64,000 nt of DNA, taken from assembly GCF_003334815.1 (NCBI RefSeq), contig NZ_QOWO01000009.1; one strand, given 5' to 3'. Each line of letters begins with the position of its first letter. Within the stretch, counting starts at the first letter, position 1. The DNA is from Escherichia coli. GTDB lineage: Bacteria; Pseudomonadota; Gammaproteobacteria; Enterobacterales; Enterobacteriaceae. The position numbers and the translations under genes were made by a program. The notes beneath the pieces are model-generated. The model was not told where the DNA came from. It saw only the letters and a list, made by a program, of their open reading frames with translations, and searched no databases. Positions 15,093 through 26,972 of this stretch are shown here, piece by piece.

Positions 15093-15173
15093 ATTTTGCT
15101 CCAAACGACATCGGCAATTGGGCAAATTCTAACCCAATAATAATCGCCATTATCTAATACCCTGGTATTTCGT

Positions 15174-21974: not shown

Positions 21975-24218
21975 TTAGAAACGGAAGGTTGCGGTTGCAA
22001 CGACCTGACGTTCTGCGCCCCAGAAGCAGCCATAAGTGTTAAAGCAGCTGGCGACGTATTCACGATCGAACAGGTTGTTAACATGCAGCGCCACGTTGGA
22101 GCCAGCCATGCCGACTCGCGCCAGATCATAACGTACTAACGCATCCACGACCGTATAACTTCCCACTTTAAAGGAGTTAGCCGGATCACCATAACTGGAG
22201 CCAGTATAACGACCACCGGTGCCCAGCGTCAGACCTGAAAGCGGACCGTCAAAGAAGGTGTAGTCAGCCCACAACGAAGCCATGTGTTTTGGCACCTGTG
22301 CAGGCGTATTGCCTTTATAGGTAGTATCGGTGGTGTATTCCGCATCGGTGTAAGTATAAGAACCGACTACGTTAACACTCGCCGACAGCGCCGCTTTCGC
22401 TTCGATTTCTACGCCACGTGCGCGGATCTCGCCACCTTCAACCGAGAAGAAGGAACCCTCAGGGTCCGCCATCAGGTTGTTGGTTTTAGTGAGATTATAC
22501 ACGGCACCAGTAACTACAATCGGACGATCTTCCGGTACATATTTCACGCCGACTTCATACTGCTTACCTTTAGACGGTGCGAAAATATTACCATCCTTCC
22601 CAACTTGCGAAGAAGGTTCAAACGATTCGCTATAGCTGAAGTAAGGTGTTACACCATTATCAAACAGGTAGTTAACACCACCACGCCAGGTAAACTGTTT
22701 GTCATCACGTTTATCGGTCGTCCCGGCAACGCGGTTAAGAGATTCTTGATCTGCCCAGTCATAACGACCGCCTAGGGTGACCAGCACTTTATCCCACTGC
22801 GCCTGATCCTGAACATAAACGCCCGTTTGTTTCTGTTTATTCAGAATGCGGTAAGGGCCGGAGTTTGCCGGATCTTTGGCATTGAAGTCGAAATCGGTAT
22901 TCACCGGATTGTACAGATTGAGCAGTGGCACAGAGTCGTCGTAACCAAACCAGGCGTTGATGTCATTACGCATACGCATAAAGTCGACACCGGTCAGCAG
23001 GGTGTGGTCGATATCGCCAGTGGCAAACTTGCTCTGCAACTGGGTATCAACGGAGAAGTTTTGCAGCTTCTCATCATCAACGACGTATTTACGTGCCAGA
23101 TAATGGCCTTTATCCGCTGGCGCTAATGCCGCACACTGTTTGCTGTAAGCATTCGCCGGATCGGAGCAGACGCCGTAACCATAAACGCTGTTTTGCGAGG
23201 TTTTGTTTTCAGCAAAGCGCAGGTTCTGACGCACAGTAAAGGTGTCGTTAAATTCGTGATCGAAGCTGTAGCCGACCATCTTCTCATTACGAGAATAGGT
23301 GTTGTTCTTCGCCCCTTCATTAAAGTCTGTCGGCAGACGCTTACCGTTCGGCAGCGGCTCAACGGTTCCCTCTTTCGGCAACCAGCCGTAATAACCGGTT
23401 TCCGGCTCGTTCTGGAAGTAAGAAAGGAAGGTAAAATTGGTTTTATCATCCGGACGCCAGGTGAACGCCGGTGCAATAGCATAACGCTGCTCTTCTGACC
23501 CTTTCTGCTGGGCATTGGCAGAACGCGCAAGACCGGTCAGGCGATAAGAGTAAACACCGTCATCATCCAACGAATCGCTAAAGTCAAAACCAGTCTGGAA
23601 CAGGCTGTCAGTACCGGCTTTAAACTGAACTTCTTTCAGCGGTTCGGTGGTCGGACGCTTGCTGACCATATTCAACAGGCCGCCAGGACTGCTTTTACCG
23701 TAAAGCACGGAAACCGGGCCACGCATAATTTCAGCGCGTTCCAGCATATACGGGTCAATGACCGCATCGTTATAGAAGTTGCCCTGCAACTTCAGGCCAT
23801 TCAGATAGTTATTCTGGCTTTGGCCTTCTGCCGCAAAGCCGCGAATGATCAGGTGGTCATAGGTGTTGGATGCGCCACGCGTACCAACAGAGACACCCGG
23901 CGTGTAGCTAAGCGCTTCTTTTACCGACTTCGGCTGATGCAGCGCCATCTCTTCGGCGGTCACAACAGAAATAGACTGTGGCACTTTTTGAATCGGCGTA
24001 TCGGTTTTAGTGCCGGTAGCAGACTGTCGCGCCGCAATAGTTGCAGCAGGCCCCCATGCGCTTTCTTGCGGCGCAGGTGCAGCGGTAACGGTGATAGTGT
24101 CTTCTTTCGGTTCAACCGCTGCCTGTGCATAAACAGACATGCCGCTAACCGCTGTGGCTACTACAACTGCGATTTTACGCAGTGAGTGTTTTGGCTGAGC
24201 TGTTTTGGAACGCGCCAT
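21975..24218 (-). CDS. fhuA: TonB-dependent outer membrane ferrichrome receptor (phage T1/T5/phi80 receptor)
   Basis: Track ORF 21975..24218 (-), 747 aa, signal peptide MARSKTAQPKHSLRKIAVVVATAVSGMSVYAQA, C-terminal ...ATATFRF beta-barrel terminus. Confidence 0.95.
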   Translation of the reverse strand: MARSKTAQPKHSLRKIAVVVATAVSGMSVYAQAAVEPKEDTITVTAAPAPQESAWGPAATIAARQSATGTKTDTPIQKVPQSISVVTAEEMALHQPKSVKEALSYTPGVSVGTRGASNTYDHLIIRGFAAEGQSQNNYLNGLKLQGNFYNDAVIDPYMLERAEIMRGPVSVLYGKSSPGGLLNMVSKRPTTEPLKEVQFKAGTDSLFQTGFDFSDSLDDDGVYSYRLTGLARSANAQQKGSEEQRYAIAPAFTWRPDDKTNFTFLSYFQNEPETGYYGWLPKEGTVEPLPNGKRLPTDFNEGAKNNTYSRNEKMVGYSFDHEFNDTFTVRQNLRFAENKTSQNSVYGYGVCSDPANAYSKQCAALAPADKGHYLARKYVVDDEKLQNFSVDTQLQSKFATGDIDHTLLTGVDFMRMRNDINAWFGYDDSVPLLNLYNPVNTDFDFNAKDPANSGPYRILNKQKQTGVYVQDQAQWDKVLVTLGGRYDWADQESLNRVAGTTDKRDDKQFTWRGGVNYLFDNGVTPYFSYSESFEPSSQVGKDGNIFAPSKGKQYEVGVKYVPEDRPIVVTGAVYNLTKTNNLMADPEGSFFSVEGGEIRARGVEIEAKAALSASVNVVGSYTYTDAEYTTDTTYKGNTPAQVPKHMASLWADYTFFDGPLSGLTLGTGGRYTGSSYGDPANSFKVGSYTVVDALVRYDLARVGMAGSNVALHVNNLFDREYVASCFNTYGCFWGAERQVVATATFRF

Positions 24219-24237
24219 TGGTATATCTCTGATGTAA

Positions 24238-24280
24238 AGTGAATGATAACGTAAACGAGAATGATTATTATAAAGATAAG
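24238..24280 (-). promoter_or_regulatory. fhuA promoter region with Fur-box-like sequence
   Basis: Minus strand CTTTATAATAATCATTCTCGTTTACGTTATCATTC, 20-60 nt upstream of fhuA ATG, resembles the Fur consensus GATAATGATAATCATTATC; fhuA is a known Fur-repressed gene. Confidence 0.55.
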
Positions 24281-24397
24281 ATAATATTCGAAACGCTGGC
24301 GGGTTCGCAAGCGGTACGCAATCTGAGCGTTCCTGAAGGGTTAATAAACAACCAGATGAAAAGAAAGGGTTAATATCTTAGATGGGATGTTATTTTA

Positions 24398-24420
24398 CCG
24401 GATGGCAACTCGCCATCCGG
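24398..24420 (-). terminator. hairpin downstream of mrcB (possible terminator)
   Basis: CCGGATGGC-AACTC-GCCATCCGG 9-bp stem 18 nt after mrcB stop; no strong U-tract on minus strand. Confidence 0.3.
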
Positions 24421-24437
24421 TATTTCACGCTTAGATG

Positions 24438-26972
24438 TTAATTACTACCAAACATATCCTTGATCCAACCGGCTACACCGTCGCTGTCTTTCTGCTCTTG
24501 CTGAGCAGGTTGCTGTTGCGGCTGTTGCTGCGGCTGAGAAGACTGATCAAACGGATTGCCTGACGGCTGCTGCTGCATCTCGCTCTGCTGGCACAGCGAT
24601 TGCGGATCGCTGGTCCAGACCGGCAAGATACGCATGCCACCGCTGCAAACAAAGTTGCCGTCGTAGTCCACGCCCATATCTGCAATATCTTCTGGCGGAA
24701 CAAGATTCAGCGGCGTTGGCGTCTGGTTAGCCAGATAACGCTGATAAATCGACATTGCCCCGCTGGCACCATACAGTTTGGTCGGCTGGTTGTTATCACG
24801 GCCGACCCAGGTGATGGTCACCGTGCTGCCGTCAATGCCCGCAAACCAGGTATCTACGTTATTGTTGGTAGTCCCTGTTTTCCCTGCCAGATGCAGGTTC
24901 GGGTATTTCGCCCCAAGCTGACGACCCGTACCGCGTTGTACCACCTGCTGCATGGTCCATAGTGTCAGATACGCCGCCTGCGCCGGAACAGCGCGTTCCG
25001 CCTGCGGGAAGCTCTGATACAGCACTTTGCCATCTTCCGCGATTACCGAACGCAGCGCAGAAAGCGGTGCACGGTTACCACCGCTGGCGATGGTCTGGAA
25101 TGCCTGCGCCACTTCGATTGGCGTTAAGTTCAACGCCCCCAGCAGCATTGCCGGAACCGGATGCAACTGATCTTTCGGTACGCCCAGTTTAATCCAGGTC
25201 TCCGTAACCGCAGGCAGCCCCAGCGCCATCCCCAGATTTACCGTCGGCACGTTCATCGAACGGGTCAACGCATCCACCAGCATCACTCTGCCGCTTTCGC
25301 TATAACGACGGTCATCATTCTGCGGTGACCAGACCTGGCCATTCGGCTGACGCAGCGCAATTGGCGCATCCGCAATCCACGTATTCAGACGATAGATTTT
25401 CGGCTGGCTTAAGGCCGTCAGATAAGTCGCTGGTTTTGCAAGGGAACCAATCGAACGACGCGCCTGCATCGCACGGTTGTAGCCCGCAAATTGCGGCTCA
25501 GAACCTCCGACCATCGCACGAACTTCACCACTAAAGCGGTCGACGACCACAATCGCAGTTTCAAGATCGCTCAACTTACGCTGTTTCTTCAGTGCCGGAA
25601 TGCCTTCCACGGCGGCTTTTTCTGCCGCGTCCTGGGCCACCGAGTCAAAGGTAGTGAAGATCTTCACGCCGGAGAGATCTTTTACCTTATCGCCCAGTTT
25701 TGCCTGCAGCTCCTGACGCACCAGTTGCATAAAGGCTGGCTGAGGAGAGATCACCCCACCGCGCGGCTGAACCCCCAGCGGACGGGCACTCAACATGTCA
25801 TAGAGTTCTTGATCAATAATCTGTTGCTGTTGCAGCAGACGCAGCACCAGATTACGTCGCTCCAGCGCCAGTTTTGGGTTACGCCACGGGTTGTAGATGG
25901 ACGCCCCTTTCACCATACCGACTAACAGCGCCTGCTGGTCGAGGCTTAGCTCTTCTACCGGGCGACCAAAGTAATACAAGCTTGCCAGCGGGAAGCCGCG
26001 GATTTCGTTGTCGCCGCTCTGACCGAGATACACCTCGTTCATATACAGCTCAAGAATACGGTCTTTGCTGTAACGCGCGTCCATGATCAGCGCCATGTAA
26101 GCTTCGTTCGCTTTACGCCAGTAAGAACGCTCGCTGGAGAGGAACAGGTTTTTCACCAGCTGTTGCGTCAGCGTACTCGCACCCTGTACCGTGCGTCCGG
26201 CGGTCAGGTTTGCCAGCACCGCACGTCCGATTGAGTAGAGACTGATTCCATCATGCTCGTAAAAATGACGGTCTTCTGTCGCCAGCAAAGTATCCACCAG
26301 CAAATCCGGGAAACCACTGCGCGGCACAAACAGACGCTGCTCACCGTTTGGCGAAGAGATCATGGTGATCAGACGCGGATCAAGACGGAAGAAACCGAAC
26401 TGACGGTTGTTCTCCATATTGACGATCGTCGCCAGATGATCGCCATCAAAGGTCAGACGCGCGCGCACCTGTCCTTCTTTACTGTCCGGGAAATCAAACG
26501 GACGGCGAATCATCTCAATGCTGTTGGCCTGCACGGTAAATTCGCCAGGACGGGTCATTTTCGACACCTGACGATACTGGGTCGCCTCCAGCAGCTTCAC
26601 CATCTCGTTCTTGCTGATGGTCATGTCTGGCTCAAGATTGACCATTCGGCCATAAACTGCCGCAGGCAGTTGCCAGACCTTGCCATCAATACGGCTACGA
26701 ATTTTTTGATCGAGATAAACGCCGTAAATGGCGATCAGCACGGCAAAAACGATAGCCAGTTTTAGCAGTAGCCATAGCCAGCCGCGTTTGCCACGAGGCT
26801 TACGCCCTTTGCCTTTGCCCTTACCTTTGCGCGGCATCGGTTCTTCATCCTCATAGTCATCATAATCGTCGTAATCATCGTCATCTTCGTAACGACGACG
26901 GCTTACCTTTTGTTTGACCGGACGCGTCGGTTTCCCTTTGCGTCCAATTGGCTCGCGGTCATTCCCGGCCAT
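24438..26972 (-). CDS. mrcB: penicillin-binding protein 1B (bifunctional transglycosylase/transpeptidase)
   Basis: Track ORF 24438..26987 (-) begins at a TTG; trimmed to ATG (M6) [21 protein letters not shown]..., 844 aa, GGAG Shine-Dalgarno upstream; internal Met46 (start at 26837) corresponds to the known shorter gamma isoform. Confidence 0.9.

Follow-up and report, generated by a model that had tools for sequence, protein, structure and literature searches.

A Fur-repressed fhuA promoter and a stem-loop without a U-tract in the mrcB-fhuA junction of Escherichia coli

Organization of the mrcB-fhuA junction

In the 64,000-nucleotide stretch of Escherichia coli DNA analyzed here (the window), the minus-strand genes mrcB, which encodes PBP1b, and fhuA are separated by a gap of 219 nt (24219-24437; Table 1). 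The gap is 100% identical to positions 167265-167483 of K-12 MG1655, and a window position w converts to the K-12 coordinate as 167484 + 24218 - w. Of 5426 complete E. coli genomes, 5425 match a 461-nt query spanning the gap, in every case at sites annotated as mrcB and fhuA. The identity to K-12 and the annotations thus bear out the gene names given in a preliminary description of this DNA, which had also placed a Fur-box-like sequence at the fhuA promoter and a hairpin behind mrcB.

On the other side of mrcB, an "orphan" RNA 3' end was reported at ~27066 (K-12 164636), 94 nt upstream of the mrcB open reading frame (Adams et al. 2021). It falls in the hrpB-mrcB gap and could mark either the terminator of hrpB or a 3' end formed prematurely within the mrcB leader.

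Table 1. Features of the mrcB-fhuA junction and related sites (window coordinates unless stated otherwise)
Feature	Position	Strand	Basis or remark
mrcB (PBP1b) CDS	24438..26972	-	ORF list; K-12 annotation 164730..167264 mapped via identical intergenic alignment
mrcB stop codon TAA	24440..24438	-	
Perfect stem-loop UACCGGAUGGC-GAGUU-GCCAUCCGGUA	24396..24422	-	11-bp stem, 5-nt loop, 9-bp GC-rich core at 24398-24420
Dimorphic junction region	24360-24430		loci L003, L004, L088
G-poor, AT-rich untranslated spacer, candidate Rho loading region	24346..24395	-	base composition
Predicted -35 TTGCGA	24305..24310	-	consensus scan; CTTGC core invariant in 56 distinct orthologous upstream regions
Predicted -10 TATTAT, 18-nt spacer	24281..24286	-	consensus scan; TATTAT, TAATAT or TATCAT across genera
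Extended Fur operator, ~42 bp	24239..24280	.	hexamer array, conservation, published gel shift
Second operator core GAATGATAAC	24241-24250		within array 24239-24280
Shine-Dalgarno-like AGAGA, 7 nt before fhuA ATG	24226..24230	-	sequence; CAGAGA conserved in alignment
fhuA CDS, 747 aa	21975..24218	-	ORF list, genome comparison, K-12 annotation
Second copy of stem-loop, TACCGGATGGC-ACTC-GCCATCCGGTA	L089 3591-3614 (K-12 3181590-3181613); also L087 405-428		ygiC-ygiD gap
Island-type hairpin (DNA) GCTCTCCGCTTATGCGGAGAGC	directly after mrcB		
Citrobacter terminator AAAACCCGCTTCGGCGGGTTTTTCTTT	after mrcB		

Fur operator and fhuA promoter

The Fur-box-like 15-mer singled out in the preliminary description, ATAATAATCATTCTC, lies on the minus strand at 24271..24257. 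The best 19-mer relative to the Fur consensus GATAATGATAATCATTATC agrees with it at 14/19 positions (24257-24275), and overlapping matches of 11-13/19 occur at 3- and 6-nt offsets from this 19-mer. Matches of at least 14/19 number 7 in the window, against 1.2 expected from Markov simulations. Read on the plus strand, positions 24239-24280 resolve into seven in-phase GATAAT-like hexamers (GTGAAT, GATAAC, GTAAAC, GAGAAT, GATTAT, TATAAA, and GATAAG). This array scores 31/42, the top value for both strands of the 64-kb window, while the maximum reached in simulated windows (n = 40) is 26. Because the consensus matches are phased and the array score exceeds all simulations, the Fur site is not a chance match; the segment qualifies as a Fur box, defined either by the 19-bp consensus or by at least three phased NAT(A/T)AT hexamers. 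The claim of a Fur-box-like sequence upstream of fhuA is thereby upheld, with a correction of its extent, the 15-mer being real but merely the center of an operator of ~42 bp.

Two further sites in the window resemble Fur boxes. The second-best hexamer array (61351-61408), with three consensus matches of 15/19, lies inside a 617-amino-acid open reading frame (60442-62295, plus strand) and was rejected as an operator, as it consists of GAT/CAT codon repeats that encode the His/Asp-rich run DWDDDDHDHHHHDNDDYHHHD. A 14/19 match, GATAATGGCGATTATTATT, is found on the minus strand at 15136-15154, ~45 nt upstream of an ATG that begins the protein MSDD...; from its position, we take the downstream gene to be probably erpA.

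A consensus scan finds TTGCGA-18-TATTAT (24310-24281) as the sole minus-strand promoter-like site in the gap, with a predicted fhuA start site near 24274. The hexamer array begins 1 nt after the predicted -10 TATTAT, so that the operator adjoins the promoter. The overlap of Fur box and promoter proposed earlier therefore holds from the edge of the -10 to ~35 nt inside the predicted transcript and does not extend over the -35/-10 pair. A TATAAT within the operator (24272-24267) was considered as the main -10 and rejected; no -35 fits at 16-18 nt, and the motif reads CATAAT in most genera, whereas TTGC...TATTAT is conserved.

Published experiments agree with this picture. Chen et al. (2007; PMC2189734) described a Fur cluster at fhuA whose strongest site, K-12 167439, corresponds to window position 24263. 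The cluster lies 45 nt upstream of the fhuA ATG, has 19.5 bits, and comprises 3 overlapping sites over 31 bp, and an oligonucleotide carrying the fhuA site was gel shifted by purified Fur at 150 nM (PMC2189734). Of their 42 strongest clusters, three lack overlap with a sigma-70 promoter, the fhuA cluster not being among these, and Fur footprints of 30-103 bp are normal (PMC2189734). In vivo, Fur represses a lacZ fusion to the fhuA promoter, and does so more strongly when oxygen is absent (Beauchene et al. 2015; PMC4676285), and fhuA, fhuC, and fhuD are members of the Fur-2 iModulon (PMC10164565). The gel shift and the lacZ fusion corroborate the proposed repression of fhuA by Fur and iron and already rule out the opposite outcome, that of no Fur binding and no iron regulation; the Fur-repressed fhuA promoter is known and experimentally established.

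To place the operator in a comparative frame, one genome per species was scanned with the MrcB C terminus, yielding 80 enterobacterial loci. fhuA lies downstream of mrcB in the same orientation in 54 of the 80; apart from two of these loci, the genes are 214-360 nt apart. An alignment of 56 distinct fhuA upstream regions contains a 33-nt block, (T/C)ATAATAAT(C/A)ATTCTCGTTTACGTTATCATTCA (window 24272..24240), that is almost invariant across ~20 named enterobacterial genera. This block varies less than the -35, the -10, or the flanks; outside it and the two conserved hexamers, the sequence changes freely, both in the stretches that separate them and farther upstream.

The stem-loop after mrcB

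The preliminary description had noted, after mrcB, a hairpin with a 9-bp stem at 24398-24420 and no U-tract. Its arms, CCGGATGGC and GCCATCCGG, are found exactly there, a single match in the window versus 0.02 expected, and the pairing extends to a perfect 11-bp stem at 24396-24422. With a folding energy of -20.9 kcal/mol (z = -4.8), this stem folds better than every one of 200 shuffled sequences (0/200 fold as well), and 15 nt separate its start from the mrcB stop codon. The GC-rich stem-loop of an intrinsic terminator is thus present. The 8 nt 3' of the stem on the mrcB strand, AAAUAACA, contain only one U (1 U/8), so the U-tract of such a terminator is missing, and the terminator scan called no terminator-like site at the hairpin on either strand. 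Because there is no U-tract, the hairpin, judged by its sequence, is not an intrinsic terminator, and read-through from mrcB into fhuA is possible, as may fairly be inferred from the missing tract.

Other classifications were also considered. A stable U-less stem-loop at the end of a transcription unit, the mark of Rho-dependent 3' ends, is what lies here. An Rfam scan of 23700-25000 with a permissive E-value gave chance-level matches only, including the potC RNA, which reached 18.8 bits where the gathering score is 44, and the K-12 record has no repeat feature annotated at the hairpin. Within Escherichia, the stem is invariant and only loop and flank bases vary, which gives no covariation support; elsewhere, the sequence is non-homologous. 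The element is an ordinary, unannotated 3' stem-loop.

Downstream of the stem, the first 50 nt contain 8% G and 22% C. The value of C minus G is at the 95th percentile, yet the stretch is mainly AT rich. Windows of 50 nt with at most 4 G make up 0.4% of those on the minus strand, and the spacer is among them; its C-over-G bias is mild, and an AT-rich composition is usual for intergenic DNA. A literature search found no published 3'-end, start-site, or operon data for the mrcB-fhuA junction. No 3' end after mrcB is among the entries consulted from Adams et al. (2021), and neither gene appears in the TERMITe or SMRT-Cappable-seq supplements.

K-12 and other strains have a second, near-identical copy, UACCGGAUGGC-ACUC-GCCAUCCGGUA, which occupies the 37 nt that separate ygiC from ygiD, two convergent genes. 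The hairpin family numbers 1-3 copies per genome, all perfect palindromes with REP-like arms, and the convergent ygiC-ygiD setting of the second copy fits a 3'-end role of such palindromes.

Terminators and hairpins after mrcB in related genera

Related loci were scored with the same definition as in the terminator scan, namely, a U-tract terminator within 95 nt of the mrcB stop codon. A canonical intrinsic terminator follows mrcB in 58/82 loci, usually 5-30 nt past the stop, and beyond these, several more loci, L058 and L066 among them, have a bulged-stem terminator. The genera with canonical terminators include Citrobacter, Enterobacter, Klebsiella, Kluyvera, and Kosakonia. None was found in the Escherichia or Salmonella loci of this 82-locus comparison. 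Nearly every locus has a strong hairpin, for the most part 5-30 nt past the mrcB stop, and the sequences are unrelated between genera. The recurrence of non-homologous terminators at one position suggests that selection has favored a 3' structure here and insulation of the two genes. From this comparison, it seems that a structure at the post-mrcB position is under selection but that neither its sequence nor, in Escherichia, its character as a terminator is.

REP-like palindromes follow mrcB in Salmonella, Pseudescherichia, one Citrobacter amalonaticus, and L049. In L016, L023, L025, L049, L060, and L084, such palindromes, of the GCCGGATGGCG...CCGGCCTAC type, lie in the 60 nt that follow mrcB, the site at which most other genera have intrinsic terminators. 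The orthologous post-mrcB site exemplifies turnover between terminator, REP, and plain hairpin.

Two junction types within E. coli

The K-12-type hairpin is present in 4850 of the 5426 complete E. coli genomes. In 567 genomes, a ~5-kb, four-gene chaperone-usher fimbrial operon (subunit, chaperone, usher, and adhesin-like protein) lies between mrcB and fhuA instead, in the same orientation as both genes and in place of an 80-nt hairpin segment. These island strains, together with the E. albertii locus L006, carry a different U-less palindrome directly after mrcB, GCUCUCCGC-UUAU-GCGGAGAGC, so that the E. coli hairpins are two unrelated U-less alleles. Homology to K-12 resumes ~140 nt upstream of the fhuA ATG, and the -35, the -10, and the Fur operator are unchanged in the island strains.

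Discussion

We put the probability at roughly 85% that the junction holds two separate elements, a Fur-repressed promoter and operator of fhuA and a U-less, protective 3' stem-loop of mrcB. For the first, a sigma-70 promoter, TTGCGA-18-TATTAT, would drive fhuACDB, with the ~42-bp hexamer array directly after it. Fe(II)-Fur bound to the array, probably as at least two dimers, would extend from the edge of the -10 across the start site and ~35 bases into the transcribed region and, in iron-sufficient cells, block initiation at the fhuA promoter. Fur on the operator may also obstruct polymerase arriving from mrcB.

For the second element, E. coli Rho-dependent transcripts end precisely after stable U-less stem-loops, which protect against PNPase and RNase II and are followed by C-over-G sequence (Dar and Sorek 2018; PMC6061677), and untranslated RNA past such a stem-loop is a typical setting for Rho-dependent termination (PMC6061677). 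By analogy, the 11-bp stem-loop would mark the 3' end of the mature mrcB mRNA and protect it against 3'-to-5' exonucleases, while Rho would end transcription in the untranslated G-poor spacer or transcription would partly run on toward fhuA. Protection of the mrcB 3' end by the stem-loop, with Rho-dependent termination or partial read-through downstream, is what we infer to be most likely.

A different view is that the hairpin stops nothing and that mrcB and fhuA are substantially co-transcribed, a constitutive mrcB promoter supplying basal fhuA expression that is independent of Fur or roadblocked by it. The two genes do share an orientation at a distance of 219 nt, the hairpin has no U-tract, no minus-strand terminator-like site was called in the gap, and both Escherichia alleles are U-less while most other genera have a canonical terminator. 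Set against this, the 219 nt of untranslated, G-poor sequence would be a good Rho substrate (PMC6061677), and Fur bound at 24239-24280 would hinder read-through in iron-replete cells. Moreover, a stand-alone fhuA promoter fragment gives Fur-regulated expression (PMC4676285), and the strong terminator that insulates the genes in most genera suggests that coupling is unwanted. We regard substantial co-transcription as unlikely.

The relationship of the stem-loop to known repeats bears on whether it has a role at all. REP (BIME) elements are imperfect palindromes of ~35 nt with a GGCCTAC-type tail, present in hundreds of copies. The mrcB hairpin occurs in only 1-3 places per genome, therefore does not belong to the REP family proper, and is excluded from it by architecture as well, being a perfect 27-nt palindrome without that tail. 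A REP-derived origin is plausible but unproven, since the REP-like elements that L049 and L016 have at this position begin with exactly the sequence of the Escherichia hairpin arm, CCGGATGGCG. REPs were reportedly found by Newbury et al. in 1987 to stabilize upstream mRNA and by Liang, Rudd, and Deutscher in 2015 to reduce translation when within ~15 nt of the stop codon.

It is conceivable on these grounds that the hairpin is a decayed or remodeled REP-type element, or another small mobile palindrome, and a passenger with no selected role for mrcB or fhuA. The shared arm, the REP-like palindromes found here in Salmonella, Pseudescherichia, and some Citrobacter, and the near-identical copy between ygiC and ygiD speak for this view. 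The low copy number, the lack of both the tail and the bulged, imperfect REP stem, and the silence of the K-12 repeat annotation and of Rfam speak against it, and the recurrence of hairpins at this exact position, in unrelated sequence forms across genera, argues for function. A mere passenger is thus distinctly unlikely. A REP origin and a 3'-end function of the hairpin are, in any case, not mutually exclusive.

The two U-less alleles invite a bolder conjecture, namely, that Escherichia swapped an ancestral strong terminator for palindromes without a U-tract in order to couple transcription of PBP1b and FhuA deliberately. Read-through would then provide a basal, Fur-gated supply of FhuA, and the hairpin would set the ratio by processing or stabilizing the mrcB segment. 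We offer this as speculation that is quite improbable.

The operator, for its part, might be conserved for more than Fur binding. Given the predicted promoter, the near-invariant block at 24272..24240 is transcribed, and its constraint, exceeding that of the -35, the -10, and the flanks, could also reflect an RNA function of the fhuA 5' untranslated region, such as small-RNA pairing or a stability determinant. Seven in-phase Fur hexamers fully account for the block, however, and its length is ordinary for a Fur footprint (30-103 bp; PMC2189734); the Rfam scan gave no match, and a block without sequence variation does not lend itself to an assessment of covariation. An additional RNA role is accordingly very unlikely.

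That the palindrome acts mainly on the plus strand, as a weak terminator keeping antisense transcripts from the Fur box region out of mrcB, is extremely improbable; the stem is there followed by TATTTCAC (4 U/8) and preceded by TTATTTTA, and a promoter-like ATGATA-17-TATTAT lies at 24243-24271 on that strand, but the tail falls short of a terminator, the promoter match is to be expected in a Fur box that is AT rich and quasi-palindromic, and no antisense RNA is known at the locus.

Returning to the two-element reading, its Fur-controlled fhuA promoter has long been established in E. coli iron regulation, and confirming it adds nothing new. The modest additions are comparative: a ~42-bp operator almost frozen across the sampled Enterobacteriaceae, an Escherichia junction that lacks the canonical terminator found between the two genes in most of the other genera sampled, and a dimorphism in E. 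coli between an 80-nt hairpin segment and a 5-kb fimbrial operon. These points open no major question and could steer a small study of Rho termination and operon insulation.

Comparison with known systems

Among known elements, canonical intrinsic terminators of related genera share with the Escherichia hairpin the position after mrcB and a similar stem length and energy; the defining U-tract is absent from all Escherichia loci, and the hairpin is therefore not classed with them. With REP elements, it has in common the arm CCGGATGGCG and an extragenic location just after a stop codon, and it differs in its perfect 27-nt palindrome, the missing GGCCTAC tail, and the lack of a REP annotation in K-12.

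In form, the hairpin resembles the stem-loops at Rho-dependent 3' ends described by Dar and Sorek (PMC6061677), which are likewise stable, GC rich, of terminator size, and without a U-tract or an upstream A-tract. The mrcB hairpin stands just after the stop codon; the mainly AT-rich sequence that follows it has only a mild C-over-G bias, and its Rho dependence is putative.

The fhuA operator has its counterparts in the Fur boxes of fepA-fes, cirA, fhuE, tonB, and fhuF, which are likewise built of phased GATAAT-like hexamers around a 19-bp consensus core and lie next to the promoter. Like these siderophore uptake sites, among which it is itself catalogued, the fhuA site is bound by Fur in vitro and repressed in vivo. 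It is placed slightly farther downstream, reaching from the edge of the -10 to ~+35 relative to the predicted start, and varies unusually little from genus to genus, with no essential difference from the rest of the group.
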